This document shows, piece by piece, positions 2,487 to 37,066 of a stretch of DNA of 64,000 bases. Below the pieces are notes generated by a model. The model was given only the letters and a program-made list of their open reading frames with translations, was not told the origin of the DNA and searched no databases. Position numbers and translations under genes: made by a program. The stretch is from an uncultured Clostridia bacterium (lineage in GTDB: Bacteria > Bacillota > Clostridia > Christensenellales > Borkfalkiaceae). The stretch is from the NCBI GenBank assembly GCA_937912025.1, contig CALDOZ010000010.1, positions 4,710-68,709 of the forward strand, read 5' to 3'. Within the stretch, counting starts at the first letter, position 1. Each line of letters starts with the position of its first letter.

Positions 2487-3299
2487 TTACGTCTTGTTTT
2501 TAAATTTTCCTGGTGGAACACCGTAAAAAGATTTAAAAAGCCTATTAAAATAATAAATATCATCAAAATTAAGTTTGTCGGCAACTTCGCCTATTGTAAA
2601 TTCTCCGCTTTTTATTAGTTCGCTTGCTTTTCGCATTATTATATAATTTTTGTATTTAATTGGCGACATTCCCGTCGCATTATGAAATTTTTGCCTAAAA
2701 CTACTACTTGACATATTGCACATTTTAGCAAGACTATCAACGTTTATTTGTTCTAAATAGTTGTTTTCAATATAAATAATTCCAGCCGTAACGTCGCTAC
2801 GTTGATTTAACGTTTTATTTATAACTTCGCTTGATATTAGCGTTATAATTTCAAGTAAAATTGATTGACATTTCAATTTATACCCAAGTTTTGAATCGTT
2901 ATAAGTTTGAAGTAGCGAGTTGAAAAGTTTATAATACACCTTAAATTTATCGTTTAAAACTAAAGTTAAATTATCAAATAGCAATACTTCTTTTTCGTTT
3001 TGATATAAGTTAAAGTATATAGACGTAGCGCTGTTATTTTCAGTGTCCGTCCAACAACTTTTATACGTTACGTCGGGCGGTAGATATAAAATATCGCCAG
3101 GTTTTGCATATATAACTAAATTGTTGTTTAGTACAAATTTTGCATTTCCGTTTATTATATAATAAAAACGCTGAATGTTATATTGACCTTTTTTTCTAAT
3201 AGTATATTTTTTAATTTTATTATTGGGAGAATAAAAGGCTAAAATATCAACTATTTTGCATTCATTATTTAAAATTTGTTTTAATTTTTCTATATCCAT
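2487..3299 (-). CDS. AraC family transcriptional regulator (cupin sensor plus C-terminal HTH)
   Basis: 270 aa. N-terminal cupin-like segment (PGDILYLPPDVTY) and a C-terminal AraC HTH (SLAKMCNMSSSSFRQKFHNATGMSPIKYKNYIIMRKA...YYFNRLFKSFYGVPPGKF). Divergent from the operon starting at 3462. Confidence 0.85.
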   Translation of the reverse strand: MDIEKLKQILNNECKIVDILAFYSPNNKIKKYTIRKKGQYNIQRFYYIINGNAKFVLNNNLVIYAKPGDILYLPPDVTYKSCWTDTENNSATSIYFNLYQNEKEVLLFDNLTLVLNDKFKVYYKLFNSLLQTYNDSKLGYKLKCQSILLEIITLISSEVINKTLNQRSDVTAGIIYIENNYLEQINVDSLAKMCNMSSSSFRQKFHNATGMSPIKYKNYIIMRKASELIKSGEFTIGEVADKLNFDDIYYFNRLFKSFYGVPPGKFKNKT

Positions 3300-3304
3300 A
3301 ATAA

Positions 3305-3449
3305 AAACCTTAAAAGTGGCAATTCAATTTATAAGCGTTAACCTTAATTATAAAAATAACCTTATTTGTTAAATTGTACAAAAAATATATTATTTTGTCT
3401 ATTGTTTTTAACGCAATTTTATATTAAACTTTAATTACTTAATAAGGTT
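3305..3449. promoter_or_regulatory. AACCTTA repeat set in the araC/operon divergent control region
   Basis: Direct copies of AACCTTA at 3305-3311, 3339-3345 and 3357-3363. One inverted copy (TAAGGTT) at 3443-3449. Confidence 0.3.
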
Positions 3450-3461
3450 AAGGAGTATTTT

Positions 3462-4748
3462 ATGGAAAAATTAAAAATTGGTATAGTTGGTTTTGGGAAT
3501 TATAGTTTTCAATATATAAATATATGGTTAAACCATCCACTTATTGAAAAAGTAGTTGGCGCTGAGTTTTTAGACGATAGACGTAAGCAAGTAGAAGACG
3601 AGTATAAAATTAAAACGTACAAATCGTTTGACGAAATGCTTGAAAACGAGTCAGACCTTAACGCGGTTGCTATTTTCACGGGTAGGCACATGCACGGGCC
3701 TCAAGTTATTAAAGCGCTTAATATGGGTAAAAACGTTTTCTCGGCAGTACCAATGGCGGTTACTGAAGAAGAAATAGTTGAAATCTTGCGTTTGGTTGAA
3801 AAAACTCGCCTTACTTATATGATGGCGGAAACTTGTTATTATTTTCCGTGCGCGGTATGGTGTCGCGAACAATATAAGCAAGGTAAGTTTGGTAAATTCC
3901 AATACGGAGAATCACAATATTATCACGATATTTCAGATATGTTTAGCGCTTTTTACGCGTCTAACGTAAATACCGATAAAAGTTGGAAATGGTTTGCTGG
4001 TATTCCGCCTATGTATTATTCAACTCACTCAACATCAATGCTTTATTCAGTAATTAACGAGTATCCGGTAGAAGTATCGTGTTATGGTATAAGAGATACT
4101 TATAACGACGATATATACGGCGAAGATAAAAACGAGTGGGGCAATCCTTATTCAAATCAAACGTCAATAGTTAGAATGAGTGGTGGTGGCGTTGCAAGAA
4201 TAAACGAATTTAGACGTATTGGTACGACTAAACCGTCGTCGTATTTAAGTAGTTTATACGGCGATTTAGGCGGTTATGAATATAGCGGACAACAACATTT
4301 ATTTTCAAGAAACGTTGAAAACCCAAGAGAATTTTCTACTGAAGACGTTAGCGAACAAGTAAACACTTTTAAGTGGCTTGAAGATAGAAATAAAACGGAT
4401 ATTGATAAATCTCAATTAATTTTTGATTATAAATATCATTGCGGATTTTCGCCTTGTCAAAACTACAACCGTTTGCCTAAAAACTTTTTAACGTTTACAG
4501 AAAAGCAAAAGGAAAATTTTATGCACGGTCATAACGGTTCGCATATTTTATTGGTTGACGATTTTGTTCGCTCTGTTATAACGAAAAAATTACCGCCTGT
4601 TGACCCTTGGTTTGCGGCGTATTGCACGCTTACAGGAATATATGCGCATAAGAGTTCAATGATGGGTGGAGTTCCAGTTAAAATTCCAGACGTGGGACAT
4701 AAACCTGCTGATTGGGATTACATTGATTTTGACGAAATAAAATATTAA
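3462..4748 (+). CDS. Gfo/Idh/MocA family oxidoreductase (long form)
   Basis: AAGGAG SD. N-terminal Rossmann segment KIGIVGFGNY and general Gfo/Idh/MocA layout. 428 aa. Confidence 0.75.
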   Translation: MEKLKIGIVGFGNYSFQYINIWLNHPLIEKVVGAEFLDDRRKQVEDEYKIKTYKSFDEMLENESDLNAVAIFTGRHMHGPQVIKALNMGKNVFSAVPMAVTEEEIVEILRLVEKTRLTYMMAETCYYFPCAVWCREQYKQGKFGKFQYGESQYYHDISDMFSAFYASNVNTDKSWKWFAGIPPMYYSTHSTSMLYSVINEYPVEVSCYGIRDTYNDDIYGEDKNEWGNPYSNQTSIVRMSGGGVARINEFRRIGTTKPSSYLSSLYGDLGGYEYSGQQHLFSRNVENPREFSTEDVSEQVNTFKWLEDRNKTDIDKSQLIFDYKYHCGFSPCQNYNRLPKNFLTFTEKQKENFMHGHNGSHILLVDDFVRSVITKKLPPVDPWFAAYCTLTGIYAHKSSMMGGVPVKIPDVGHKPADWDYIDFDEIKY

Positions 4749-4749
4749 T

Positions 4750-4802
4750 GTTAACTTTGTCCATATAAACAATATGATTTTATATGGACAATTAACTTTT
4801 TA
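4750..4802 (+). terminator. Intra-cluster hairpin plus T-run after the first oxidoreductase gene
   Basis: Perfect 10-bp stem TGTCCATATA (4758-4767) with TATATGGACA (4781-4790). Outer GTTAA/TTAAC pairing. T-run at 4797-4801. Confidence 0.5.
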
Positions 4803-4813
4803 TAAAATATAAT
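4785..4813 (+). promoter_or_regulatory. Candidate sigma-A promoter for a near-leaderless transcript
   Basis: TGGACA (4785-4790), 17-nt spacer, TATAAT (4808-4813). The ATG at 4824 is only 10 nt past the -10, and there is no SD. Confidence 0.4.
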
Positions 4814-4823
4814 GAAATAAAAA

Positions 4824-5594
4824 ATGATAGATAGAATTAGTGTTTGCGTTGATATGATGTTTGCGCCGTCAACGTTTAATGAAAAATTAATTAGGTGCAA
4901 AAACTGTAATTTTAAAACTATTGAGTTTTGGAAATGGTCAAATAAAAATTTAAACGAAATAATTAATAGCAGTTTAAACGTTAGTATTTTTAACCTTGAT
5001 AGTAGTAACGATAAATTGTCTTACGACTTATCTCGCGGGATAATTAACGATGGTAGAGTTGACGATTTTATTTCAGCGCTAAATGAAAGTATTCCCGTAT
5101 ACAAAAAACTAAATGCTAAAGCAATGATTGTATTAATTGGTGAAAATGCTAATTATAGTGAAGAAAATTGTTTAAAGTGTTTATTAAAAGCAAAACCAAT
5201 TTTAGAAAAAGAGAACGTTAATTTAGTTATTGAACCATTAAACGCTACTGACCGCGTAGGGTATAGTATGCCGTATGTAGCCCCCGTTTTTGATTTAGTT
5301 AAAAAAGTAAATAGTAAACACGTTAAAGTTTTATACGATATTTATCATCAAAACGTTACGGGCGACTTTGACTTAGATAACGTTATTAAAAATTTAGAGT
5401 ATATCGGTCATTTTCACGTTGCCGACGCGCCTGGTAGACACGAACCGGGTAGCGCTAAAATTGATTACGTTAAAATTATAAATACCATTATAAAATTTGG
5501 GTATAAAAATTATATAGGTTTAGAATATCGCGCGACTAAGCGTGATGAAGATACTTTTGAATTTCTAAATGAATTAGTAAAATTTAAGGAGTAA
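4824..5594 (+). CDS. Hydroxypyruvate isomerase-like / xylose isomerase-like TIM-barrel protein
   Basis: 256 aa. Hyi-family features (N-terminal S-V-C-V-D-M-M-F, IEFWKW, LVIEPLN, GHFHVADAPGRHEPG, IGLEY). No SD. A TATAAT ends 10 nt upstream of the ATG. Confidence 0.7.
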   Translation: MIDRISVCVDMMFAPSTFNEKLIRCKNCNFKTIEFWKWSNKNLNEIINSSLNVSIFNLDSSNDKLSYDLSRGIINDGRVDDFISALNESIPVYKKLNAKAMIVLIGENANYSEENCLKCLLKAKPILEKENVNLVIEPLNATDRVGYSMPYVAPVFDLVKKVNSKHVKVLYDIYHQNVTGDFDLDNVIKNLEYIGHFHVADAPGRHEPGSAKIDYVKIINTIIKFGYKNYIGLEYRATKRDEDTFEFLNELVKFKE

Positions 5595-5596
5595 TT

Positions 5597-6673
5597 ATGT
5601 TTAAAGTATGTATTATCAGTTGTGGTATGATTGCCAACTCGGCGCATATACCAGCGTATAAAAGATTTAGTGATGATTTTGAAATTGTTGCAGTTTGCGA
5701 TATTAATGAAAAATCCGCAAAAGAAACTGCTCAAAATCACGGAATTTCTAAATACTATTTAGATGCTAAAACTATGCTTGACGAAGTTAAACCAGACCTT
5801 GTTTCTATATGCGTTCCTAACTGTTTTCATAAAGAATACGCTATAATGGCGCTTAAAGCAGGCGCAAACGTTTTATGCGAAAAACCACTTGCTTTTACTT
5901 ATAGCGACGCTGTAGAAATGTTTAACGTTGCTAAAGAATGTGGTAAAATTTTAATGGCTTGCCAAACAATGCGTTTTACTCCTGATAGAATTGCCGCTAA
6001 AAAATACATGCAAGCGGAAGGTGTTGGCGACGTTTATTACGGCGAAGTTGCAAGAATACGTCGTAGAGGTATACCATTTTGGGGCGCTTTCCATATTGAA
6101 AAGATTAGTAAAGGCGGAGCGTTTGTTGATATAGGCGTTCATATGCTTGACGCGCTTATCTACCTTATGGATAACCCTGAAGTTTTAAGCGTTACTGCAA
6201 CGACTATGCAAAACCATAAAGACGAAATAGGCTCTTTAGAAGGTAGTGGAGCGTTTACGGGCAACGTTTCAAACGCGAGAAAGTTTAATCCAGACGAAAT
6301 GGACGTTGAAGATTTTTCTTGCGGACTTATTAAGTTTAAAAACGGCGCAAATATCACTTTTAAAGTTGCTTGGGCGGCAAATATGCCAGAATATAACGAT
6401 ATTAAAATCGTAGGCAAAAAAGGTGGACTTTATTTACCTGAAGGTAAAATCTATTTTGGTGAAAAGGGTGAAAAAACTCTTGAAACAACGCCGTGTCCTT
6501 ACGATACGCCTTTTTCTGGTCACGTTTATATAATTGATAACTTTAGAAAGGTTTTAAAAGGCGAAGAGCAACCTATAGTTAAGCCTGAAGAAACTATTAA
6601 CGTATCTAAAATAATAGAAATGTTCTATAAATCGGCAAAACTCAAAAGAGAGGTTTATTTTGATGAAAATTAA
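5597..6673 (+). CDS. Gfo/Idh/MocA family oxidoreductase
   Basis: AAGGAG SD. CIISCGMIANSAHIPAY Rossmann start and the EKPLA motif (CEKPLAFT). 358 aa. Confidence 0.85.
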   Translation: MFKVCIISCGMIANSAHIPAYKRFSDDFEIVAVCDINEKSAKETAQNHGISKYYLDAKTMLDEVKPDLVSICVPNCFHKEYAIMALKAGANVLCEKPLAFTYSDAVEMFNVAKECGKILMACQTMRFTPDRIAAKKYMQAEGVGDVYYGEVARIRRRGIPFWGAFHIEKISKGGAFVDIGVHMLDALIYLMDNPEVLSVTATTMQNHKDEIGSLEGSGAFTGNVSNARKFNPDEMDVEDFSCGLIKFKNGANITFKVAWAANMPEYNDIKIVGKKGGLYLPEGKIYFGEKGEKTLETTPCPYDTPFSGHVYIIDNFRKVLKGEEQPIVKPEETINVSKIIEMFYKSAKLKREVYFDEN

Positions 6674-7766
6674 AAGCGTAATTATTGGTTTTTCTCATAT
6701 GCACGTTAACGAAGTTGCGTTATATATTAGCGAAAGGGAAGATATGGAACTTGTTGCCGTTGCCGATGCTGATAGCGGTAACGAGCAAATAGACGGCTAT
6801 CGTTATACTCAAAAATGGAATTTACAAAACGTTAAAGAAAAATACTGCTCTAACGTTTATGAAGATTTTAAAGTTATGCTTGACGAAGTTAAGCCTGACG
6901 TTGCGTTTATTTTAACTGAAAACTCGTTAAAACCGTATATAGTTGAAGAATGCGCTAAACGTAAAATTGACGTTTGTATTGAAAAACCTATGGCGGTTAG
7001 TTTAAGCGAGGCTAAAAAAATTAAAGAAAGCGTTGAAAAATACGGTATTACAGCGCTCGTTAACTGGCCTGTTGCGTGGAGACCTTACGTTCATAAAATG
7101 AAAAAGGCGCTTGATAGCGGTGTGGTAGGGAAGCCTATTAAACTTCGCTATATAAACGGTCATACAGGACCGCTTGGTAAAGGCGCTAAACATCGTGGCG
7201 TAAGCGAAAACGCCGAAGAAATGACTGACGAAGTTAGAAGTAAAACGTGGTGGCATAAGTCTGAGTACGGTGGTGGCGTGTATCTTGATATAGCGTGCTA
7301 CGGTTGTTATTTTGCCGATTGGTTTTTAACGGGTAACGCTAACTCGGTTGTGAGCGTAGGTAAAAATTTAAATACTCCTTTTGGAGATACGGACGACAAC
7401 TTTGGCGCTATTATTAGTTACGATAAGCAAATGGCGGTTATTGAAGGAACGTGGACTACTCCGCGCGTTGTTATTCCGTCAGGACCAATGCTTCTATGTG
7501 AAAACGGCGTAATTACTTGTACGGGTGGCGCTGAAAATATGCCAGACGTTAAAGTTTACGATATTTATGGTAACGAGATTGTTATTGACGACGTAAATAT
7601 GCACGTTAAATACAAAAATATGCCTAATATGTACGCCGAATTAAAAAACAATAATCAAGAAGTTTTCGAGATGGTTACTCTTGAAAAAAATATGGAAATT
7701 ATGGCGTTACTTGACGCTTGTATTGAAAGTTCAAAAAACGGTAAAAGCGAAAAAGTTTTAAAATAA
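6663..7766 (+). CDS. Gfo/Idh/MocA family oxidoreductase
   Basis: I prefer the ATG at 6663 (AGAGAGG SD 8 nt upstream) over the TTG at 6660. Overlaps the preceding gene by 11 nt. Carries the CIEKPMA motif. Confidence 0.75.
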   Translation: MKIKSVIIGFSHMHVNEVALYISEREDMELVAVADADSGNEQIDGYRYTQKWNLQNVKEKYCSNVYEDFKVMLDEVKPDVAFILTENSLKPYIVEECAKRKIDVCIEKPMAVSLSEAKKIKESVEKYGITALVNWPVAWRPYVHKMKKALDSGVVGKPIKLRYINGHTGPLGKGAKHRGVSENAEEMTDEVRSKTWWHKSEYGGGVYLDIACYGCYFADWFLTGNANSVVSVGKNLNTPFGDTDDNFGAIISYDKQMAVIEGTWTTPRVVIPSGPMLLCENGVITCTGGAENMPDVKVYDIYGNEIVIDDVNMHVKYKNMPNMYAELKNNNQEVFEMVTLEKNMEIMALLDACIESSKNGKSEKVLK

Positions 7767-7786
7767 AAAAGTATTTGAGGTATTAA

Positions 7787-9997
7787 ATGCTTACCTATAA
7801 TGATAGACTAAAAATTTTACGTCAAACTAAAATCGAGCATACTTTAGCAAAGAAAATACAAAACGGTTATACTGATCTTGACGATTTTGGTACTGTGCCA
7901 ATATCAGAAGGTTACGAAGTTATGCCGTGGTATAATAGCGCTAACGGAAGTTTTTACGGTTACGACGGAATGAGCGAAAACTTTTGTAGGGTAATTGATG
8001 CTCACGAACCGTACGTTGATGCTATGGAAATGCTTTGCGGTAGATGGCGAGATATGCTCGTTAACTATCGTGGCGACGTTCACTACGCACCTAATTGGTT
8101 AAAAAATAAACCCGAAGTAATGAAAGTGATGAGTAGCGCTGATACTCAGTTTAGTAAGCGTTGGGATGAGCAACGTTTTCCTTACGATCATTTGAAACCG
8201 TTGCAGAAAAAATATAATATTCAAACAGGTATTGACGGTGATGCTCATCTTGCTTGCGATTACTCTATCGGTTTTGAGTTAGGTTTTGGTGGACTACTTG
8301 AAAAAATTCGTAAATATCGCGATATTAACGTAAAAAATAAAGATTTTTATAATGCCGAAGAAAAGGTTGTTCTTGCTATAATTAGGTTTATAGATAGGCA
8401 TATCTTAAAAATTGAAGAAATGCTAAAAAGCGAAACAAGACCTGAAATTGTTACGTCGCTACAAGATATGCTAACTGCTTGTAAAAACGTAAGACTTAAT
8501 CCTCCTAAAACTTTTCACGAAGTGTGTCAATGGACGGCGTTTTTTAATTGCGCGTCAAGAATATATACTCGTGACGGCGCAGGTTTTCAACTTGACGCGC
8601 TTTTATATCCGTATTACCTTCGCGATAAAAAGGAAGGTATTTTAGATGATGAAAAGGCTAAATTTTTAATAGCGAATTTACTTTTAATTGATCCCCATTA
8701 TTATCAAATTTCTGGTGTTGACGAGTTTGATAACGATTTAACCAACGAGTTGTCTTATTTAATTTTAGATGCGGCGGACAGTATAAATATTGCTTGCAAC
8801 TTGACTGTTCGCGTACATGATAATTGTGACGCTAAGTTCTTTGATAAAGCCGTTTATTACCTTATTAAAAACAAAAACGGTTGGCCTAGATTTTGTAACG
8901 ATAAGGCGCTTTCAGAAGGTTATATGAAAAACGGTGTTGATAAAAAGACGGCGCGCGAACGCATTGCCGTAGGTTGTAATTGGATGTGTGTTCCGGGTAA
9001 GGAATTCCCTATGAACGATACCGTTAAAATAAACGTTGCAAAGGTTTTTTACGAAGCGTTTATGGAAATGAAAGACGAGCCCAATAAAAGTACGCAATTA
9101 TTATATGAGATTTTTGAAAAGCATCTTAAAATTGCAATTGACGTTACAGCGCAAGGTGTTAACTTGCATATTGATAATCAATGGCAAGTAACTCCTGAAC
9201 TCATCATGAATTTAATGATGAAAAACACTATTGAATTAGGTCAAGATATTTCTAAATGCGCCGAACTTTACACGGTTGGCGTGGACGGAGTTGGTCTTGC
9301 CGTTGTTGCTGATAGTTTTGCGGCGCTTAAAGTTAAGGTTGAAAATGAAAAAGTTCTTGATTGGAAAACTGTTTACGAGCAAATTGAAAACAATTTTGAA
9401 AACGAGCGTGTAAGACTTATTTTAAATTCAACTCCTAAATATTGTAGTGGAAATAGCGTTGCCGACGAATACGCTTTAAAATTAACTCAAACGTGGGTTA
9501 AAAACGTTAAAAATCAAAAAATGCCAAAAGGAAGACAGTTAATCCCGGGCTGGTTTAGTTGGGCAAGGTCGGTTGAATACGGCAAAACTGTCGGCGCTAC
9601 TCCTAACGGTCGCTTTGCAGGCACTCCCGTTTCACACGGCGCAAACCCAAACCCGCGTTTTAGAATAGACGGCGCTGCAACAGCGCAATCAAATGGTATA
9701 GCGTCAGTCCAATGTGGTTATGGTAATACCGCGCCTTTGCAAATTGAGTTTGACCCGCAAGTTGCCGAAGAAAACGGCGTTGCTATTATCGGCGCGTTTA
9801 TAAAAGGTCATTTTGCTAAAGGTGGAACGCTGATAAATATAAACGTTCTTGACGGTGATAAACTTTTAAAAGCGCATGAAAACCCAGATTTATATCCCGA
9901 TTTAGTCGTTAGAGTTACAGGATTTACCGCTTATTTTGCAACTTTATCTCCTGAATTTAGACAACTTGTCGTTGATAGATTTATTAAAGGTATGTAA
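7787..9997 (+). CDS. Glycyl radical enzyme, PFL-like fold, unknown substrate
   Basis: 736 aa with a GAGGT SD. C-terminal glycyl radical fingerprint VVRVTGFTAYFATLSPEFRQLVVDR (Gly712, nt 9920-9922). Candidate thiyl loop AVGCNWMCVPG (Cys397, nt 8975-8977). The Cys-to-Gly spacing of 315 aa equals that between Cys419 and Gly734 of E. coli PflB. Confidence 0.85.
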   Translation: MLTYNDRLKILRQTKIEHTLAKKIQNGYTDLDDFGTVPISEGYEVMPWYNSANGSFYGYDGMSENFCRVIDAHEPYVDAMEMLCGRWRDMLVNYRGDVHYAPNWLKNKPEVMKVMSSADTQFSKRWDEQRFPYDHLKPLQKKYNIQTGIDGDAHLACDYSIGFELGFGGLLEKIRKYRDINVKNKDFYNAEEKVVLAIIRFIDRHILKIEEMLKSETRPEIVTSLQDMLTACKNVRLNPPKTFHEVCQWTAFFNCASRIYTRDGAGFQLDALLYPYYLRDKKEGILDDEKAKFLIANLLLIDPHYYQISGVDEFDNDLTNELSYLILDAADSINIACNLTVRVHDNCDAKFFDKAVYYLIKNKNGWPRFCNDKALSEGYMKNGVDKKTARERIAVGCNWMCVPGKEFPMNDTVKINVAKVFYEAFMEMKDEPNKSTQLLYEIFEKHLKIAIDVTAQGVNLHIDNQWQVTPELIMNLMMKNTIELGQDISKCAELYTVGVDGVGLAVVADSFAALKVKVENEKVLDWKTVYEQIENNFENERVRLILNSTPKYCSGNSVADEYALKLTQTWVKNVKNQKMPKGRQLIPGWFSWARSVEYGKTVGATPNGRFAGTPVSHGANPNPRFRIDGAATAQSNGIASVQCGYGNTAPLQIEFDPQVAEENGVAIIGAFIKGHFAKGGTLININVLDGDKLLKAHENPDLYPDLVVRVTGFTAYFATLSPEFRQLVVDRFIKGM

Positions 9998-10011
9998 TTG
10001 AATATTAAGTA

Positions 10012-10047
10012 AAAAACAACTCTAATATTTTAGAGTTGTTTTTTTTA
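10012..10047 (+). terminator. Rho-independent terminator after the glycyl radical enzyme gene
   Basis: 11-bp stem AACAACTCTAA (10015-10025) with TTAGAGTTGTT (10030-10040). 4-nt loop and a T-run. Confidence 0.85.
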
Positions 10048-10194
10048 GTTTGTGCTTTTTAGCCGTTTGAAGTTTAATAACGTTATCAAATTAGAGTAAA
10101 GTTTTATTAAGAATATCGAAAATACTTAAAATGCATAAAATGCAATATTTTTATGCAGTAATTGCTTTTTTTAGGTAAAATTTTCATGTTATAC

Positions 10195-10223
10195 TTGAAA
10201 TGTTGGTTTTGGCGTGATATAAT
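10195..10223 (+). promoter_or_regulatory. uxuA promoter
   Basis: TTGAAA (10195-10200), 17-nt spacer, extended -10 TGaTATAAT (10215-10223). Confidence 0.6.
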
Positions 10224-10252
10224 TATAAAAACGTAAAGACTTTAAACAGTTT

Positions 10253-10271
10253 AATTGCAAACTTTGCAATT
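10253..10271. promoter_or_regulatory. 19-bp perfect palindrome (operator candidate) in the uxuA leader
   Basis: AATTGCAAA-C-TTTGCAATT, located between the -10 and the SD. Confidence 0.55.
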
Positions 10272-10310
10272 TAAAATAACGGCATTTGCCGAAAATGAGG
10301 TTAATTTATT

Positions 10311-11342
10311 ATGAAAATGACTTTTAGATGGTATGGCGAAAACGACTGTATTCCTTTAAACTACATCAAACAAATTCAAGGAATGACGGGTGTTGTTACC
10401 GCTGTTTACGACGAGCCTGTTGGTGCTGTTTGGCCACTCGAAAAACTTTTAAAACTCAAAAAACTTGCAAACGACGCTGGTTTAGAGATGGAAGTTATCG
10501 AGTCTGTTCCCGTTCATGAAGATATTAAACTTGGTAAGCCTACGCGTGATAAATATATTGAAGCGTACAAGCAAAATATTATAAACTGCGGTAAAGCGGG
10601 TGTTAAATGTATTTGCTATAACTTTATGCCTGTTTTCGACTGGCTTAGAACAAACCTTTATTTTAAGCATCCAGACGGTGCGACTTCGCTTTCATACTCT
10701 CACGAAGAACTTTTAAAATGCGATCCTCATAACCTTCATTTGCCAGGTTGGGACGAAAGTTATACTCAAGAAGAGCTTAACGGTCTTTTAGACGAGTATA
10801 AAAATATGACTCATGAAAAGTTGTTTGAAAATTTAGTGTATTTCTTAAACGCTATTATGCCAGCGTGTGACGAGGCTGACGTTGACATGGCTATTCACCC
10901 AGACGATCCACCATGGGATATGTTTAATCTTCCGCGTATTATTTGTAAAGAAAGTGATTACGATAGACTTTTTGCCGCTGTTCCTAACAAGCATAACGGT
11001 ATTACTTTCTGTACGGGTAGTTTAGGCGCGGGTAGATTTAACGACCTTCCTAAAATGGCTGGAATGTACGCTGACCGTATTTATTTTGCTCACCTTCGTC
11101 AATTAAAATATACCGGCGACGTTGATTTTTACGAAAACGGACATATGACGTACGCTGGTAATATTGATATGTACGGTATTGTAAAAGCGCTTGAAGATAA
11201 TGGATTTAAAGGTTATCTTCGTCCTGACCACGGCAGAAACGTTTGGGGAGAAGACGCTAAGCCTGGGTATGGTTTATATGATAGAGCAATGGGTGCTTGC
11301 TATCTTGCAGGCTTATTTGAAGCAGTTAAAAAAAATAAATAA
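10311..11342 (+). CDS. uxuA: Mannonate dehydratase
   Basis: The N-terminus MKMTFRWYGENDCIPLNYIKQIQGMTGVV is the classic UxuA start. 343 aa. GAGG SD. Confidence 0.9.
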   Translation: MKMTFRWYGENDCIPLNYIKQIQGMTGVVTAVYDEPVGAVWPLEKLLKLKKLANDAGLEMEVIESVPVHEDIKLGKPTRDKYIEAYKQNIINCGKAGVKCICYNFMPVFDWLRTNLYFKHPDGATSLSYSHEELLKCDPHNLHLPGWDESYTQEELNGLLDEYKNMTHEKLFENLVYFLNAIMPACDEADVDMAIHPDDPPWDMFNLPRIICKESDYDRLFAAVPNKHNGITFCTGSLGAGRFNDLPKMAGMYADRIYFAHLRQLKYTGDVDFYENGHMTYAGNIDMYGIVKALEDNGFKGYLRPDHGRNVWGEDAKPGYGLYDRAMGACYLAGLFEAVKKNK

Positions 11343-11366
11343 TTTTAGTTATATATAGGTGGTAAT

Positions 11367-11990
11367 ATGAAAATTTTGTTTTATGGTGATAGCATAACAG
11401 ATATGGATCGTAATCGTCAAGTAGAAGATTCTTTAGGTATTGGCTACGTTCGTTCTGTTGCCGATTATTTAGTTAGTGAAGATCCTATTAAATATAAAGT
11501 AATTAACCGTGGTATAAGCGGTAATAGAGTTGTTGACCTTTACGCAAGAATTAAAAGTGACGTGTGGAATATTGAGCCTGACGTTTTATCAATATATATT
11601 GGCGTCAACGATATTTGGCACGAAATTGATTACAATAATGGTGTGGACGTAGAAAGATTTGAAAAAGTATATAGAATGCTTATTGAAGATACTTTGAAAC
11701 GTTTACCAAATGTAAAATTTATTCTTGTTGCTCCGTTTGTAACACGTGGTACTGCAACTGAAAAATATTTAGATAAGTTTAACGACGTTTCTAAATATGA
11801 AGATGTTGTTGTTAAATTAGCAAAAGAATATAATTTTGCTTATATTACGTTGCAAGAAGATTTTGATAAAGCCGTTGAAAAATATGGCTCAGATATCGTT
11901 GTTAAAGATGGTGTTCATCCTTGTTTATACGGCGCTACTATTATCGCTAAAAAATGGGTTGAATGCTTTAAGAAAAATATTGATAAGTAA
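11367..11990 (+). CDS. SGNH/GDSL family hydrolase
   Basis: Block I KILFYGDSITD, block III GVNDIW, and a C-terminal DGVHP (DxxH). 207 aa. Confidence 0.8.
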   Translation: MKILFYGDSITDMDRNRQVEDSLGIGYVRSVADYLVSEDPIKYKVINRGISGNRVVDLYARIKSDVWNIEPDVLSIYIGVNDIWHEIDYNNGVDVERFEKVYRMLIEDTLKRLPNVKFILVAPFVTRGTATEKYLDKFNDVSKYEDVVVKLAKEYNFAYITLQEDFDKAVEKYGSDIVVKDGVHPCLYGATIIAKKWVECFKKNIDK

Positions 11991-11999
11991 GGAGATATT

Positions 12000-12830
12000 A
12001 TGAAATTACCATTTAAAATTGATTTAAGTGATAAAGTAGTTGCCATAACTGGCGCGGGTGGAATTATTTGTAGTGAATTTGCTAAGGCAATGGCTCAATG
12101 CGGTGCAAAAGTTGCTCTTTTAGACATTAATTACGACGCTGCTAAAGTGTACGCTGATGAAATTGGCGAAAATGCAATTGCAGTTAGATGTAACTGCCTT
12201 GATAAAGCAAGCATTGAAGAAGCAAAAAACGTTGTTAACGAAGCGTTTGGTCCAGTTAATATTTTAATTAACGGCGCTGGTGGTAACAATCCTAAAGCAA
12301 CTACCGATAATGAATATATGACTCCTGACTTAGATGGTGGTAAAACTTTCTTTGATATCGATGAAAAAGGTTTTAAATTCGTGTTTGACCTTAATATTAC
12401 TTCAGCCTTTTTAGTAACTCAAGTTTTTGCTAAAGATATGGTAAAAACGGGTGGTAACATTATTAACGTTTCGTCAATGAACGCTTTCCGTCCATTAACA
12501 AAAATTCCAGCGTACAGCGCTGCAAAAGCGGGCATATCTAACTTTACTGAATGGCTTGCCGTTCACTTTGCTCCTTGTAATATTCGTTGTAACGCTATCG
12601 CTCCTGGATTTTTCGTTACTAATCAAAACCGTGGTTTACTTTATAATGAAGATGGTACGCCAACTGCAAGAACGGGCAAGATTTTAAATGGAACTCCTAT
12701 GAAGAAGTTTGGTGAAATTTCTGACCTTATCGGCGCGCTTTTATGGCTTTCTTGCGATGATGCAAGTGGTTTCGTTACGGGTACTGTTATTCCTGTTGAC
12801 GGTGGTTTCTCTGCTTATAGTGGCGTTTAA
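12000..12830 (+). CDS. uxuB: SDR family oxidoreductase, probable D-mannonate (fructuronate) oxidoreductase
   Basis: TGAGGIIC cofactor motif, NGAGGN, and YSAAK catalytic motif. Sits in the uxuA neighbourhood. The gene symbol is inferred from context. Confidence 0.7.
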   Translation: MKLPFKIDLSDKVVAITGAGGIICSEFAKAMAQCGAKVALLDINYDAAKVYADEIGENAIAVRCNCLDKASIEEAKNVVNEAFGPVNILINGAGGNNPKATTDNEYMTPDLDGGKTFFDIDEKGFKFVFDLNITSAFLVTQVFAKDMVKTGGNIINVSSMNAFRPLTKIPAYSAAKAGISNFTEWLAVHFAPCNIRCNAIAPGFFVTNQNRGLLYNEDGTPTARTGKILNGTPMKKFGEISDLIGALLWLSCDDASGFVTGTVIPVDGGFSAYSGV

Positions 12831-16744: not shown

Positions 16745-17707
16745 ATGAAAATAACTGTACTTGGTTGTGGTAGATGGGGTAGTTTTATTACTTGGTATTT
16801 ATCTTCAAACGGTCATAACGTTACTGAGTGGGGACGTGAAGGCGGAAAATCATATACCGTATTAAAACAAACTGGTAAAAACGAATACGTTACTTTAGAT
16901 AAAAACGTCACTCTTACGTCTGATTTACAAAGCGCAGTTAGTAACTCTGAACTTATTGTCGTATCAGTTTTGAGTCAATCGCTTAGATCGGTTTTAACTG
17001 AGTTAGTTAAATATAAAAGTAAAAACGTCCCCGTATTATTATGTATGAAAGGTCTTGAAGAAAATACGGGTAAAAGACTATCGCAAATAGCCGTTGAGTG
17101 CGGAATTGATAAAAATTACGTTGCCGTGTGGTTAGGTCCTGGTCATATTCAAGAATTTTTAAAAGGTAGACCTAATTGCATGGTTATTGATAGTGAAAAT
17201 TATGACCTTACCGTAAAACTTGCCGACGCTTTAAGAAGCGATTTAATACGTTTTTATTATGGTGACGATCTTATCGGTAACGAAATAGGCGCTGCCGCTA
17301 AAAACGTTATGGGTATTGCCGCTGGTATGCTTGACGGTGGTGGTTATACTTCGCTTAAAGGCTCGTTAATGGCTCGTGGAGCAAGGGAAATTTCGCGTTT
17401 AATTAAAAAAATGGGCGGAAACGAACTTTCCGCTTACGGTTTATGTCATTTAGGTGATTATGAAACGACGTTATTTTCAGACTACTCGCATAATAGAAAT
17501 TACGGCATTTCACTTATTAAGAACGACACGTTTATAAAAACTGCCGAAGGCGTTCAAACTTGTAAAGCGCTTAAACTTTTAGGCGAGAAATACGGGGAAG
17601 AATTGCCCATTGTAAATGCCGTTTATTCTATAATTTATCAAAATAAAAACCCGCGTGAAATGTTTAATTTATTGTTTTCAAGAAGTTCACGCAAAGAATT
17701 TTCATAA
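16745..17707 (+). CDS. gpsA: NAD(P)H-dependent glycerol-3-phosphate dehydrogenase
   Basis: KITVLGCGRWGS Rossmann start and NEIGAAAKNVMGIAAGM motif. 320 aa. AAGGAG SD. Confidence 0.85.
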   Translation: MKITVLGCGRWGSFITWYLSSNGHNVTEWGREGGKSYTVLKQTGKNEYVTLDKNVTLTSDLQSAVSNSELIVVSVLSQSLRSVLTELVKYKSKNVPVLLCMKGLEENTGKRLSQIAVECGIDKNYVAVWLGPGHIQEFLKGRPNCMVIDSENYDLTVKLADALRSDLIRFYYGDDLIGNEIGAAAKNVMGIAAGMLDGGGYTSLKGSLMARGAREISRLIKKMGGNELSAYGLCHLGDYETTLFSDYSHNRNYGISLIKNDTFIKTAEGVQTCKALKLLGEKYGEELPIVNAVYSIIYQNKNPREMFNLLFSRSSRKEFS

Positions 17708-17711
17708 AAGC

Positions 17712-17746
17712 AAAAAATCGCGTAACTTGCTGGTTACGCGATTTTA
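17712..17746. terminator. Bidirectional terminator between gpsA and nagB
   Basis: 13-bp stem AAAATCGCGTAAC (17714-17726) with GTTACGCGATTTT (17733-17745). Confidence 0.85.
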
Positions 17747-17764
17747 AATTTTATTATAATTAAA

Positions 17765-18493
17765 TTATTTTGAAAGTTTTGATGCAGCCGCTTTATCAAT
17801 AACGATATAGCAGTTAGGGTGAAGTTGAAGTACCGATGCTGGAACTTTTTCTGTTACAGGACCTTCAACGGTTGCTTTTATGGCGTCTGCTTTATTAGCG
17901 CCTGAAGCAATTAATAAAATTGCTTTAGAGTTCATAACGTTTTTAATACCCATTGAAATTGCTTGAGTTGGAACTTCGTCAATACTATTAAAGAAACGAG
18001 CGTTATCTTTAATTGTGTTTTCAGTAAGGTCAACAACGTGAGTAACCGAGCCAAACGGAGTGTTTGGTTCGTTAAAACCGATATGACCGTTAGAGCCTAT
18101 ACCAAGAACTTGAATATCAACTGATAAACCAGCAAGTTTAGCATTGTATCTATTACATTCAGCAACTATATCGTCACATTTACCGCAAGGAAGGTCAGTG
18201 TTGTTAAGGTCGATATCAATGTGATTAAATAAATTATTTCTCATAAATTCAACGTAACTTTGTTCATCGCCAACGCCTTGACCAATATATTCGTCAAGGT
18301 TAACCGATTTAACGTTTTTATAAGAAACGTTACCTTTTTTATAATCTTCAATCATACATTTGTATAGACCAATAGGGGTAGAACCTGTTGCTAAACCTAA
18401 AATAGCATCGTTTTTTGAAGTTACAACTTCTTTCATTACTTCATAAGCTTTTGCGCTCATTTCGTCGTAATTTTCAGCAATAATAATTTTCAT
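17765..18493 (-). CDS. nagB: Glucosamine-6-phosphate deaminase
   Basis: MKIIIAENYDEMS..., LGLATGSTP, LGIGSNGHIGFNEP. 242 aa. Confidence 0.92.
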   Translation of the reverse strand: MKIIIAENYDEMSAKAYEVMKEVVTSKNDAILGLATGSTPIGLYKCMIEDYKKGNVSYKNVKSVNLDEYIGQGVGDEQSYVEFMRNNLFNHIDIDLNNTDLPCGKCDDIVAECNRYNAKLAGLSVDIQVLGIGSNGHIGFNEPNTPFGSVTHVVDLTENTIKDNARFFNSIDEVPTQAISMGIKNVMNSKAILLIASGANKADAIKATVEGPVTEKVPASVLQLHPNCYIVIDKAAASKLSK

Positions 18494-18524
18494 AATACAC
18501 CTCGTAATTCATTAATAAAGTTGC

Positions 18525-18581
18525 AAGCACAAACGTGCTTAAATCTTTTTTTATTATAAACCTTAAATTTTTTAAAGTCAA
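18525..18581 (-). promoter_or_regulatory. nagB promoter plus leader palindrome
   Basis: On the minus strand: TTGACT (18576-18581), 17-nt spacer, TATAAT (18553-18558). Palindrome AAGCAC-N4-GTGCTT at 18525-18540, downstream of the -10. Confidence 0.55.
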
Positions 18582-18586
18582 TAGAG

Positions 18587-19258
18587 TTAATCGTTTAAAT
18601 TCCAGTTTATTTGTTCTTTATTTAATTTTTTTAATATGTCGTTTGTTTTAGAAAACGGTTTAGAGCCCCAAAAACCGTTATAACACGATAATGGAGAAGG
18701 GTGCGCGCTTTCTATTATATAATGGCGCGACGTGTCAATAAGTTTCTTTTTAGCCCTAGCGTTACCACCCCAAAGTATAAACACGATAGGTTCTTTTCTA
18801 TCTGATAAAATTTTAATAACTTCGTCGGTAAACCATTGCCAACCGCAGTCTTTATGGCTGTTTGCTTGACCTTGACGAACGGTTAACGTCGTGTTTAATA
18901 GTAAAACGCCTTCTTTAGCCCACTTTATAAGTTCGCCCGATTTTGGCTCAGGTATATTCAAGTCGCTATTTAATTCTTTAAAAATATTTTTAAGAGAAGG
19001 TGGAAATTTAACTCCGCTTGGTACGGAAAAAGAAAGCCCCTCCGCTTGACCTTCTTCGTGATATGGGTCTTGACCTAAAATAACCGCTTTAACGTCGTTA
19101 TAGTCAGTTTCCTTAAAACATCTAAAAATGTTATACATATTAGGATAAATCGTTCTACAAGAGTATTCTGCTTTTAAAAACTCACGGATTTTAAGATATT
19201 TTTCGTCGCTAAATAAAGGGGCTAACAAATCGTCCCAACAATTATCAAATTTAACCAT
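18587..19258 (-). CDS. ung: Uracil-DNA glycosylase
   Basis: VILGQDPYH catalytic motif, LLLNTTLTV, and ESAHPSPLS. 223 aa. Confidence 0.92.
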   Translation of the reverse strand: MVKFDNCWDDLLAPLFSDEKYLKIREFLKAEYSCRTIYPNMYNIFRCFKETDYNDVKAVILGQDPYHEEGQAEGLSFSVPSGVKFPPSLKNIFKELNSDLNIPEPKSGELIKWAKEGVLLLNTTLTVRQGQANSHKDCGWQWFTDEVIKILSDRKEPIVFILWGGNARAKKKLIDTSRHYIIESAHPSPLSCYNGFWGSKPFSKTNDILKKLNKEQINWNLND

Positions 19259-19520
19259 AAATCACCTCAATAGATATTTTAACACGAATTTAATATAAAT
19301 GCAACGCCAATTTTTAACCTATAAAAGTGAAAATAAAATAAAATTTTTTTAACGTTTAAATTTTAGATTTTTGGTAAATATATTATATATATTTAGAAAT
19401 TTGCTCCTATCTTTATATATAATATATAGAAAAGAAAGTTTTAAAAAACTGTTTACTTTTTTTATTTATTGAGTTAAAATAAACAAGTGCAAAAATTATT
19501 TACTAACGTAGGAGGAAGTT

Positions 19521-30213: not shown

Positions 30214-30399
30214 ATGTATATTCCTCAAAACGCAGAAATTTTATTAAGTGTAATCAACACGTTACTTAGAGATAAATATAGTTCAATCTATGACTTATGC
30301 GACTATGAAGACGTAGATTTTAATTTAGTTAATTGTAAACTTGAAAGTGTTGGGTACGTTTATAACGAAAAAACAAATTCTTATATTTTAAAGGATTAG
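30214..30399 (+). CDS. DUF4250-like small protein
   Basis: 61 aa. The LLSVINTLLRDKYSS...DLC pattern is typical of DUF4250. No SD. Confidence 0.55.
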   Translation: MYIPQNAEILLSVINTLLRDKYSSIYDLCDYEDVDFNLVNCKLESVGYVYNEKTNSYILKD

Positions 30400-30400
30400 T

Positions 30401-31429
30401 ATGAAGAAATTTAAATTAACAATTATAAGCATTTTATTACTAATATTTTCTTTTATGGCTATGGCTTGTGAAGATGAGCACGTTCATACCTATAGTGATA
30501 CGTATTCTTATAACGACGTTTACCATTGGTATGCTGCAACGTGCGAGCATTCTGAACTTCGAGACGATCGTTTTAAACACGAATATAATTTTAATTACGA
30601 ATGTATCGTTTGCGGGTATAAACATACGCATTCTTTTGATAATGACGACAAATGTATTTGTGGAGAAGTTAAAGATGGTAATTCTCAAGAACAACCGCCT
30701 GTTGAAATAACTTCGCTTGATAATAAAACGTTTAAATTAAAGTCCGTTATCGTTAGCGATGAAGACGGAACAAATTGGGAAAGACACAATGTTGGAACAA
30801 ATAATTACACTGTAGATAATTATAATTTAACTTTCTTAGGTAACGGAGTTGGCTACTGTAATTTTGGCTCTCCTATTGATTATAAAATTGCATACGTTGA
30901 ACAAGAAAAATTAGTTACTGTAAAAGTTGAGAGTGACGGGGTTGACGTCAATCAATATACTAATACTGCCGAATACAAAAAAACAACGAAAACTTACCTT
31001 GGAGAAATAAAAAACGGGCAATTAGAATTATTTACAACCATTTTAAACAAACCTACCGGCATAACTAAAAAATACACTTACGTTTTCGTTTGTGATGCGG
31101 AGAATACTTTAACCGCTCAAGATTATCCTTATCTTTATAATTATTTTATAGGTGAATATACAACTAAGATTAACGATACTACAAGTTACGTTGACGTTAC
31201 CGTTAAAGAAAACAATAAAGCAGACTATATCCAATATAGTTATAATGGTAGCGAATATACGCCAACCGTTTATAGCGACTGTACGGCAATTTTAACAAGT
31301 ATGAAATCTAATAACGAGTATTATTACGTTATAAGATTATATTACGTTAACCGCCTTAACGCACTTGTAAACGTGGAAATTAAATTTAAACTTAACGGTC
31401 AATGCGTTAATTTTACGGAGAAAGTATGA
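30401..31429 (+). CDS. Lipoprotein with N-terminal Cys/His-rich module, unknown function
   Basis: Signal peptide and lipobox (LLLIFSFMAMA-C). Followed by an H/C-rich stretch (HVHTY...HWYAATCEHSE...CIVCGYKHTH...CICGE). 342 aa. Confidence 0.6.
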   Translation: MKKFKLTIISILLLIFSFMAMACEDEHVHTYSDTYSYNDVYHWYAATCEHSELRDDRFKHEYNFNYECIVCGYKHTHSFDNDDKCICGEVKDGNSQEQPPVEITSLDNKTFKLKSVIVSDEDGTNWERHNVGTNNYTVDNYNLTFLGNGVGYCNFGSPIDYKIAYVEQEKLVTVKVESDGVDVNQYTNTAEYKKTTKTYLGEIKNGQLELFTTILNKPTGITKKYTYVFVCDAENTLTAQDYPYLYNYFIGEYTTKINDTTSYVDVTVKENNKADYIQYSYNGSEYTPTVYSDCTAILTSMKSNNEYYYVIRLYYVNRLNALVNVEIKFKLNGQCVNFTEKV

Positions 31430-32319
31430 AAAAAGGCTTAATTGTTGTTAACGCGTATTGTAATATTCCGTCAATGCTTAATCAAAGCGTTAGACTCAAA
31501 GAAGAGTTTGAAAGACTTGGCGTTAACGTTGACGTAGTTAAAAACGGATATAACTTATTTTTAGATAGCGACGGTAATATATCTGGTGATATTGATAGTT
31601 ACGATTTTTGTATTTATCTTGATAAAGATAAGTATTTTGCCGAACTTTTACAAAGAAAGGGTATAAGAACGTTTAATAAAATTTCTTCGATAACAACTTG
31701 CGACGATAAGATGCTTACTCAAATTGCACTATGTAATATTAACGTTAAAATGCCAAAGACTTTTTATGCTCCGCTAAATTATTCAAATTGTGAAGTTGGC
31801 GTCGATGAGTTAAAAAAAGTAAGTGACGCGCTTAAATTTCCGCTAGTTGTTAAACTTAGTTATAGTTCGCTTGGGAAAGGCGTTTTTAAAGTTGATAATA
31901 TTGAAGATTTTTATAAAATTGTAAACGCAAATAAAAATAGCGCCAAACTTTATCAAGAATACGTTAGTTCAAGTTATGGTAAAGACGTAAGAATTATTTG
32001 TATAGGTAAAAAATACTTATGCGCGATGCTTAGAAAATCAACGACTGATTTTCGTTCTAACGCTGAACTTGGCGGAGTGGGCTATGAATATAATCCGCCA
32101 AAAGAATTTATTGAAGTTGCTGAGAAAATTGCCGACGTTTTAGATCTTGATTATATGGGTGTTGATTTAATGTTTGGCAAAGATAACGAGCCTATTTTAT
32201 GTGAAGTAAATTCTAACGCGTTTTTCGGCGTAATGGAAAAGGTTTCTAAAGTAAACGTTGCAAAAGCATACGCAAACTACGTTATTAGTCAAGTGTATTG
32301 TAAGGAGAATTTATTATGA
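31426..32319 (+). CDS. RimK-type ATP-grasp ligase
   Basis: 297 aa. ATP-grasp pattern (FPLVVKLSYSSLGKGVFKV, QEYV..., GKDVRIICIG, DLDYMGVDLMF, EVNSNA). ATGA overlap with the upstream gene. Confidence 0.75.
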   Translation: MKKGLIVVNAYCNIPSMLNQSVRLKEEFERLGVNVDVVKNGYNLFLDSDGNISGDIDSYDFCIYLDKDKYFAELLQRKGIRTFNKISSITTCDDKMLTQIALCNINVKMPKTFYAPLNYSNCEVGVDELKKVSDALKFPLVVKLSYSSLGKGVFKVDNIEDFYKIVNANKNSAKLYQEYVSSSYGKDVRIICIGKKYLCAMLRKSTTDFRSNAELGGVGYEYNPPKEFIEVAEKIADVLDLDYMGVDLMFGKDNEPILCEVNSNAFFGVMEKVSKVNVAKAYANYVISQVYCKENLL

Positions 32320-33232: not shown

Positions 33233-33233
33233 A

Positions 33234-35603: not shown

Positions 35604-35640
35604 AATTTGACATAAAAATGATAATATAAGAAATGAAAAG

Positions 35641-36967: not shown

Positions 36968-36993
36968 AAATGCACGTTAACTTTGATGTAAAT

Positions 36994-37036: not shown

Positions 37037-37066
37037 AAATATTTTAGTTTTTTTGCGTTATTAGTA

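Follow-up and report, generated by a model that had tools for sequence, protein, structure and literature searches.

What does a glycyl radical enzyme (GRE) do in an operon that otherwise encodes sugar-type oxidoreductases? The question is raised by a 64,000-nucleotide stretch of DNA from an uncultured Clostridia bacterium (contig CALDOZ010000010.1), the whole of which we call the window. Five plus-strand genes run there head-to-tail, divergent from an AraC-family regulator on the minus strand (2487–3299). They encode an atypical Gfo/Idh/MocA (GFO) protein of 428 amino acids (GFO1, 3462–4748), a xylose-isomerase-like TIM barrel (4824–5594), a DgpA-like NAD-dependent sugar or glycoside oxidoreductase (GFO2, 5597–6673), a further Gfo/Idh/MocA oxidoreductase (GFO3, 6660–7766, its likely start being the ATG at 6663) and a GRE of 736 amino acids (7787–9997), in which a tryptophan stands two residues after the thiyl cysteine (C-x-W). 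A first, sequence-only reading of this DNA had described the same five genes, and the open reading frame (ORF) list and Pfam bear out their positions and families.

In our view the cluster is a conserved catabolic operon under AraC control that serves a neutral ring compound derived from carbohydrate, and the GRE would carry out radical C–O cleavage; to this reading we give a probability of roughly one half. The substrate could be a sugar, a glycoside, an anhydro-sugar or a cyclitol. The radical cleavage chemistry put forward in the sequence-only reading appears plausible.

The arrangement recurs across genera

More than 120 homologues of the GRE, 75–80% identical and all about 737 amino acids long, were found in Clostridia/Oscillospiraceae genomes, including that of the isolate Qingrenia yutianensis. 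The Q. yutianensis locus (L001; activase 9250–10017, GRE 10001–12214) has an AraC gene beside GFO1, TIM barrel, GFO2, GFO3, a radical-enzyme activase and the GRE, with overlapping start and stop codons; in the window, the five plus-strand genes are separated by 75, 2, −14 and 20 nucleotides (ORF coordinates). We scanned one genome per species and obtained 80 loci with full-length GRE relatives of 36–75% identity, whose ORFs were first labelled through BLAST comparison with the window proteins and afterwards clustered. At least 15 other Clostridia genomes share the gene order of the window. The full seven-gene arrangement was present, either in this order or with slight permutation, in L001, L012, L013, L016, L023, L086 and L088. 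A GFO gene lies immediately upstream of the activase–GRE pair, or of the GRE, in 15 of the 17 loci with a GRE of 64% identity or more, and in all 15 its best match is GFO3-like; of the cluster genes, GFO3 has the tightest linkage to activase and GRE.

The regulator belongs to the same picture. It contains the C-terminal double helix-turn-helix (PF00165 HTH_AraC, 2.3e-17; PF12833 HTH_18, 3.2e-16) and is 35% identical to the AraC protein in the same position in Q. yutianensis, and the same type of AraC adjoins the cluster in L001, L005, L012, L013, L016 and L023. The flanks of close orthologues, on the other hand, have little in common: of 106 flanking ORFs, no more than four share any one Pfam family, the commonest being CBM_4_9 (four) and FAD_oxidored, PfkB and GDSL (three each). 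As the gene order is the same across genera while the flanks are not, the arrangement is beyond chance. Judged by this synteny, Gfo/Idh/MocA and TIM-barrel genes are conserved companions of the GRE clade, and their presence in the window is no accident.

The cluster can also be taken apart. In L090, an AraC gene stands beside a TIM barrel, GFO1 (50% identical) and GFO2, without GFO3, activase or GRE, whereas GFO3–activase–GRE is the invariant core among close orthologues. The operon can thus be seen as a module I (TIM barrel, GFO1 and GFO2) joined to a module II (GFO3, activase and GRE). In other phyla, with the GRE down to about 45% identity, GFO2-like and GFO3-like genes lie upstream of activase–GRE (L020–L022, L024 and L031); L030 and L045 have two GFO2-like genes and one GFO3-like gene there, and up to five tandem GFO genes were seen in related loci. 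The separate occurrence of module I is what would be expected if the GRE and the GFO and TIM-barrel genes were merely neighbours without a common pathway. That explanation has very little probability in our view: each start codon overlaps the preceding stop codon or comes close to it, the order is kept across genera amid unrelated flanks, no family is met more often than GFO beside the GREs of distant phyla and 70 of the 72 GFO ORFs near related GREs are on the same strand as the GRE.

Insertions and additions were also observed. In L088, a GDSL esterase gene (10214–11188) separates GFO1 from the TIM barrel, and the GRE is followed by two SDR genes and by one for a type I dehydroquinase (17123–19275).

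A radical enzyme with an altered cysteine loop

Both domains of a GRE are recognised in the 736-residue protein (PFL-like PF02901, 2.5e-87; Gly_radical PF01228, 4.4e-13). Its Gly loop, RVTGFTAYF (R709-V-T-G712-F), fits the fingerprint RVxG[FWY] with Gly712 as the radical site, and its Cys loop, IAVGC397NW399MCVPGKE406, has Cys397 as the thiyl site; the 120 closest homologues carry the same two motifs unchanged. In alignments, Cys397 falls on Cys433 of glycerol dehydratase and on the corresponding cysteines of 2f3o and PflD, and it is invariant in the family. In the HMMER alignment to glycerol dehydratase, H154 corresponds to His164 and D411 to Asp447, the former within an ungapped segment (query 150 to chain 160) and invariant in the family, and W399 takes the place of Glu435.

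This last substitution sets the protein apart. The C-x-E motif is kept in all six C–O eliminases, CutC, the C–S lyases and the isomerases HplG, YbiW and PflD, and its glutamate binds a substrate hydroxyl (PMC13450708). The window GRE has C397-N-W399 and so fails the motif test of the 1,2-eliminases and isomerases, and a simple analogy with an eliminase acting on a keto-sugar is not secure. Nor does any curated family claim the protein. Its scores are below the cut-off of every GRE model in NCBIfam, with 269.5 against 678 bits for TIGR01774, 187 against 1100 for HypD, 131 against 1050 for CutC and 196 against 1000 for HpsG, and it is far below the HpfG, PFL, HPAD and IAD models too. The closest solved relatives are Archaeoglobus fulgidus PFL2, glycerol dehydratase and PflD (E 1e-46 to 1e-48), the best PDB identity being about 20–25%. 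The sequence-only reading would have been refuted by membership of the protein in a characterised GRE clade with the same gene neighbourhood; by these scores and identities it falls outside all such clades, and the reading is not refuted on this ground.

Database entries label the protein "formate acetyltransferase" or "pyruvate formate lyase family protein", and these labels would suit a formate acetyltransferase, or a keto-acid formate-lyase, that uses pyruvate or 2-ketobutyrate from the pathway. The formate-lyase model scores 78.5 against 994 bits (TIGR01255), the Cys–Cys pair of formate-lyases is missing (a single conserved cysteine in G-C-N-W) and a true pyruvate formate-lyase (PFL; 1083 bits) is encoded together with PflA elsewhere in the window. 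Because of motif and score we rejected the label "formate acetyltransferase", and the probability of a formate-lyase role is minimal.

A structural model was used solely for confirming the fold, the active-site loops being poor. The AlphaFold model has a mean pLDDT of 69 and a pTM of 0.76, and a fold search with it returned only GREs, among which all PFL2-type enzymes were about equal (TM 0.65–0.71, 16–22% identity). By its domains, motifs and alignments, then, the protein is a genuine GRE with an eliminase-like scaffold, but one outside the motif classes of both the eliminases/isomerases and the formate-lyases.

Spread of the C-x-W enzymes

The altered loop extends far beyond the window. In all 81 GREs of the related loci, the two loops read [GAV]C[NHS]W...PGxE and R[VI]TGF. 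A search of 1.84 billion representative proteins was used for counting clusters, and among the best 150 clusters, those with an alignable Cys-loop position divide into 57 with C-x-W and 60 with C-x-E out of 127. Glu406, nine residues after the cysteine, is co-conserved with the tryptophan in the C-x-W clusters and variable in the C-x-E enzymes. Clade relatives occur in more than 10 phyla and in human, Hadza, ruminant and sediment genomes; the hosts of the loci include Clostridia, Bacteroidota, Planctomycetota, Verrucomicrobiota, Kiritimatiellae, Spirochaetes, Chloroflexota, Ignavibacteriota, a Burkholderiales metagenome-assembled genome (MAG) and Bathyarchaeia. The partners recur at this distance: among 130 same-strand neighbour ORFs from 41 distant loci (36–56% identity), GFO_IDH_MocA is the top family (23 ORFs) and AP_endonuc_2 the next (8), other clade neighbours being sugar ABC transporters, ROK, PfkB, PMI/cupin and glycoside hydrolase (GH) families.

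We tentatively propose that the C-x-W GREs may constitute a new functional class, one that acts alongside Gfo/Idh/MocA dehydrogenases and subjects the ring of a sugar, keto-sugar or cyclitol to a radical transformation not yet described, though we would put this at somewhat under even odds. Held with the same reserve, as part of that proposal, is that such a class would belong neither to the C-x-E eliminases and isomerases nor to the Cys–Cys formate-lyases, the decarboxylases or the X-succinate synthases.

Gene fusions and other neighbours were seen among the relatives. TIM–GFO fusion proteins stand beside activase–GRE in L044 (7122–9044), L046 and L052, and the 1052-residue protein P0132 consists of a radical-SAM activase (residues 1–287) fused to a C-N-W GRE (residues 313–1027). 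A URO-D/MtaA-like gene lies just downstream of the GRE in L063, L066, L071 and L079 (from Ignavibacteriota, a Cytophagia MAG and unclassified bacterial MAGs), followed by a sugar-type ABC transporter in three of the four (L066, L071 and L079), and MttB-family genes occur in two further distant clade loci. These URO-D/MtaA-like and MttB neighbours are hints that some clade members may handle methylated substrates.

Partner enzymes

GFO2 is assigned to GFO_IDH_MocA (2.8e-28). It matches DgpA over its full length, residues 2–349 (9m3d, 5.7e-53; 7xr9, 1.2e-52), a similarity to PDB chains only, and retains EKP at residue 95 and the D-x3-H region; its PDB matches also include 1,5-anhydro-D-fructose reductases (E about 1e-14). 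GFO3 (GFO_IDH_MocA, 9.4e-16) has EKP at residue 108 and weak structural relatives. In GFO1, the family is recognised in the N-terminal Rossmann domain only (2.5e-15), the C-terminal half being hardly recognisable, and PDB matches are weak. E123-T124-C125 replaces E-K-P, leaving no catalytic lysine, and this is invariant in nine orthologues, which also keep several invariant histidine and cysteine residues. GFO1 may thus, from its motifs, not be a conventional dehydrogenase. A GH109-like NAD-dependent glycosidase was considered as an alternative identity and rejected, as PF21252 was faint on the homologues (E 0.03–0.08) and absent on the window protein.

The TIM barrel belongs to AP_endonuc_2 (4.8e-27), and its metal tetrad E137/D172/H198/E234 is invariant in eight orthologues. 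Its PDB relatives are isomerases or epimerases of keto-sugars or keto-acids, namely 3ngf, TM0416, YgbM/OtnI and the 3-keto-glucoside 4-epimerase YcjR. The name "Hyi-like", given to it in the sequence-only reading, fits only loosely: the protein is Hyi-, OtnI- and IolO-like while remaining under all cut-offs, with 128.7 against 353 bits for hydroxypyruvate isomerase (TIGR03234), 105.6 against 325 bits for the 2-oxo-tetronate isomerase OtnI (NF043033) and a weak similarity to IolO-type 5-keto-L-gluconate epimerase (9.5e-18).

Loss of the dedicated activase

A radical-SAM gene of 255 amino acids adjoins the GRE in 61 of 77 related loci, and the activases of Qingrenia and L088 pass TIGR02494, the model for glycyl-radical activating enzymes. 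In the window, GFO3 and the GRE are 20 nucleotides apart with no activase between them. This dedicated activase, present in most orthologous loci and absent here, is a component that the sequence-only reading overlooked. Absence is shared by a 98%-identical relative (L084) and by an 82%-identical one (L085), whose GRE ORF is intact, and the gene is independently absent in L011, where a 253-amino-acid ORF, considered as a candidate, proved to encode a metallo-beta-lactamase-fold protein. A tblastn search with the Qingrenia activase across the 64-kb window had PflA as its sole match, at 31% identity. By comparison with the related loci, the dedicated activase is lost in this genome.

These observations could mean that the GRE is a decaying relic left by the deletion of its activase and that only the GFO and TIM-barrel genes are functional, all the more so as TIM barrel, GFO1 and GFO2 can exist without a GRE. 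The substitution pattern suggests otherwise. In comparison with L084, which likewise has no activase, we counted 83 synonymous and 19 non-synonymous differences in the GRE, giving a ratio of non-synonymous to synonymous rates (dN/dS) of 0.052, close to the 0.03–0.05 of the three GFO genes; the 0.42 of the TIM barrel comes from about seven differences and is not informative. Moreover, the window GRE has all clade-invariant residues, the ORF is intact at 82% identity, the activase has been lost independently in L011 and PflA is encoded in the window. The low dN/dS indicates that the GRE is under strong purifying selection despite the missing activase, and we regard a relic as improbable. The relic, formate-lyase and unrelated-neighbour explanations are all three poorly supported.

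How would such an enzyme be activated? PflA (37130–37867, plus strand), 27 kb from the GRE, is the one glycyl-radical activase in the window, scoring 307.6 bits against a cut-off of 231.75 (TIGR02493), and belongs to a separate PFL locus. The GRE would be activated in trans, either by PflA or by an activase outside the window.

The second locus (34824–41499) contains genes for an AraC protein, a Gfo/Idh/MocA protein (35690–36967), PflA, a thioredoxin (37867–38187) and PFL. The large PFL chain (38341–40374, 677 amino acids, TIGR01255 1083 bits) ends within the glycyl-radical domain, and the remainder is a separate GrcA3-type chain of 77 amino acids (40403–40636) with its own ribosome-binding site (NF038360, 160.8 against 158 bits). 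A TIM-barrel gene (40690–41499) follows, so that this naturally split PFL is likewise flanked by GFO and TIM-barrel genes.

Borders of the probable transcription unit

The region between the AraC gene and GFO1 (3300–3461, 162 nucleotides) is the presumed promoter and operator, from inspection of its sequence: an AGGAG ribosome-binding site precedes GFO1, and the promoter-like sites there are consensus matches only. At the other end, an intrinsic-terminator-like hairpin (10011–10044, plus strand; a 15-bp stem, a four-nucleotide loop and a T-run) starts 14 nucleotides past the GRE stop codon and before uxuA, which has a promoter-like site of its own, again a consensus match. With the GRE followed by this terminator and uxuA preceded by its own promoter-like site, the five genes look like a single unit, and uxuA (10311–11342), a GDSL esterase gene (11367–11990) and uxuB, an SDR-type D-mannonate oxidoreductase gene (12000–12830), like a separate one. 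Within the 75 nucleotides that separate GFO1 from the TIM barrel, a near-consensus promoter-like sequence, TGGACA-17-TATAAT (11/12), was observed at 4785–4813. The operon might have an internal promoter here; equally, AT-rich DNA may produce such a match by chance.

The sequence-only reading had named GH172 upstream and uxuA/uxuB downstream of the cluster. The positions are right, a DUF2961/GH172 gene being found at 130–1185 upstream of the AraC gene. As conserved partners these genes were rejected: they are absent from nearly all related loci, the terminator separates uxuA from the GRE and two ORFs lie between GH172 and the AraC gene. One of these has an Amidase_6 domain (1269–1766, 165 amino acids) and the other, on the minus strand (1893–2405, 170 amino acids), has no family match.

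The remaining window is an ordinary low-GC Clostridia chromosome with topA, hslVU, hisS, a glycogen operon and Tex. Seven closely packed plus-strand genes of no clear function were observed at 30214–34821. Their products are a DUF4250 protein (61 amino acids), a 342-amino-acid protein without Pfam match, a RimK-type ATP-grasp protein, a DUF386/YhcH protein, a YbaK-like tRNA-editing domain protein and two proteins of 292 and 253 amino acids without Pfam or NCBIfam match.

A possible ring-cleaving pathway

Gene content, synteny, motifs and selection are observations, given above; the substrate class, the bond to be cleaved, the order of the steps and the activation in trans are what we infer. 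Module I would oxidise a ring hydroxyl with NAD and then isomerise or epimerise the resulting keto-sugar in a metal-dependent step. Module II, GFO3 and GRE and usually the activase, would supply a step beyond the reach of ionic chemistry. Once the radical is installed on Gly712, Cys397 would abstract a hydrogen from the substrate and a C–O bond would be cleaved, by dehydration or by opening of an ether or ring. His154 could act as the acid on the leaving group, like His164 of glycerol dehydratase, and Trp399, in place of the usual glutamate, would probably stack on the ring. For the missing base, either the clade-specific Glu406, a candidate base, or the acidity of the substrate itself might substitute. 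The GFO enzymes would either make the substrate of the GRE or consume its keto product, and their order relative to the GRE is left undecided here.

Several observations weigh against this reading. The missing C-x-E glutamate speaks against an eliminase mechanism of the textbook kind. Oxidised sugars normally undergo beta-elimination without radicals, and the chemical need for a GRE is thus unexplained. The roles given to W399 and E406 are guesses, the structural model being weak at the Cys and Gly loops: pLDDT is below 50 at 395–412 and 710–713, as well as at residues 612–649. The glycoside hydrolases and transporters in the flanks vary among close orthologues, and the 106 flanking ORFs offer no consistent clue to the substrate. 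Finally, the Gly loops differ, RVTGFTA in the GRE against RVSGYAV in the PFL/GrcA3 partner of PflA, and the specificity of the PFL activating enzyme is thought to depend on this loop. Since a Tyr-to-Phe change is tolerated, activation of the GRE by PflA in trans is possible but unproven, and on the loop comparison it is uncertain.

The same loss of the C-x-E base would fit chemistry other than 1,2-elimination, and the GRE might instead be a new class of lyase that breaks a C–C bond, by ring opening or by cleavage, in a diketo or alpha-hydroxyketone intermediate supplied by the GFO dehydrogenases. The Thermotoga inositol route yields di-oxidised rings through GFO dehydrogenases, and up to five tandem GFO genes, as found in related loci, could do the same; the IolO-type similarity of the TIM barrel (weak, as given above) and the downstream uxuA and uxuB, which process 5-keto-hexonates, are in keeping with this. 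Yet PFL-type cleavage uses a Cys–Cys pair where this clade conserves a single cysteine, the equivalents of the dehydratase residues His164 and Asp447 are kept, and the uxu genes are behind the terminator and are not conserved neighbours. We consider C–C cleavage unlikely, though worth keeping in mind, and C–O cleavage the preferred reaction.

Significance

GREs allow anaerobes to perform chemistry that otherwise needs oxygen or B12, and newly assigned GRE clades (CutC, HypD, IslA and YbiW/PflD) have each revealed a gut-relevant pathway. If the C-x-W GREs do constitute a new functional class, an anaerobic carbohydrate pathway would be present in Clostridia of the human and ruminant gut and in more than 10 other phyla, including Bathyarchaeia. 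Solving the C-x-W clade would add a reaction type to the GRE superfamily and would probably reveal a carbohydrate of dietary or plant origin for whose use gut anaerobes have an unmapped route. Cultured hosts make the question testable: Qingrenia yutianensis, Neglectibacter timonensis and Enterocloster lavalensis. The C-x-W clade, its mechanism so far a proposal, is a strong lead for enzyme discovery.

The sequence-only reading knew of no described pathway that couples a GRE to such enzymes, and in the literature covered, a 2026 review and full texts outside the subscription journals, we likewise found none coupling it to Gfo/Idh/MocA or TIM-barrel enzymes. A description of the cluster or of a C-x-W GRE was also not found in the full-text literature, including the 40 top-ranked of 198 papers from 2025–2026 with a mention of GREs, subscription journals not being covered. 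The superfamily review of June 2026 describes no GRE linked to Gfo/Idh/MocA enzymes (PMC13450708).

Relation to characterised enzymes and pathways

The combination of several Gfo/Idh/MocA proteins with TIM-barrel enzymes is shared with the inositol clusters (IolG/IolX/IolW with IolE/IolI; IolM/IolN/IolO of Thermotoga). The window proteins have weak IolG and IolO matches, and TM0416 is the second-best PDB match of the TIM barrel, whereas all Iol models are far below their cut-offs. No IolD-, IolN-, IolB- or IolC-like genes were noticed among the annotated genes of the cluster and its neighbours, no dedicated search having been made, and we know of no inositol pathway that uses a GRE.

The 3-keto-glycoside routes, DgpA/DgpBC, YcjQRS of Escherichia coli and BT2156–2160 of Bacteroides, similarly pair a GFO dehydrogenase with a xylose-isomerase-like TIM barrel, and the likeness extends to the full-length match of GFO2 with DgpA and a weak similarity of the TIM barrel to YcjR. 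They differ in that the barrel here is Hyi/OtnI-like and all NCBIfam 3-dehydrogenase models are far below cut-off for the window GFO proteins. There was no DgpB among the PDB matches and no small DgpC-like ORF in the operon, a profile search not having been made, and to our knowledge none of the three systems contains a GRE.

On the side of the radical enzymes, PFL2 of A. fulgidus (2f3o) is the best PDB sequence match to the window GRE (E 3.6e-48), but their identity is low and PFL2 has G-C-V-E at the Cys loop. Its function is debated and no reaction is assigned to it (PMC13450708). Glycerol dehydratase and 1,2-propanediol dehydratase (1r8w, 5i2g and 9rco), B12-independent C–O eliminases, are among the top matches by both fold and sequence. 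The equivalents of His164 and Asp447 are kept as H154 and D411, and the activase of the orthologous loci is of the same TIGR02494 type. In contrast, Glu435 is replaced by Trp399, and the window cluster is without microcompartment or aldehyde dehydrogenase genes.

YbiW and PflD are the sole characterised GREs that act on a sugar ring, and they occur in gut bacteria. In their "anhydroglycolysis", 1,5-anhydroglucitol-6-phosphate and 1,5-anhydromannitol-6-phosphate are converted to 1-deoxyfructose-6-phosphate. The PFL2-type fold is shared (TM about 0.7), both enzymes appear in the top group of fold matches and PflD gives the top local similarity at the Cys loop (8yjo, E 2e-9). The window GRE might accordingly be taken for a similar isomerase whose substrate is an anhydro-sugar, such as 1,5-anhydroglucitol, 1,5-anhydromannitol or 1,5-anhydrofructose in unphosphorylated form, and whose reaction opens the ether ring, with the GFO enzymes interconverting anhydro-hexitols and anhydrofructose or processing the 1-deoxy-ketose product; the established chemistry and the 1,5-anhydro-D-fructose reductases among the GFO2 matches would both suit it. 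YbiW and PflD, however, keep C-x-E, with the glutamate on the C2 hydroxyl where C-N-W has tryptophan, and overall identity is about 20%. Where the window has Gfo/Idh/MocA and TIM-barrel genes, their loci have genes for a PTS (phosphotransferase system) and an aldolase, and the cluster has no PTS, aldolase or phosphate-related genes, so that such an isomerase is rather unlikely here. Set beside these systems, the component families of the cluster are all known, and sugar catabolism by a GRE has its precedent in YbiW/PflD. What is new, by the motifs and gene neighbourhoods compared here, is a large, uncharacterised and phylogenetically wide clade of GREs whose catalytic motif is altered and whose pathway context has not been met before.

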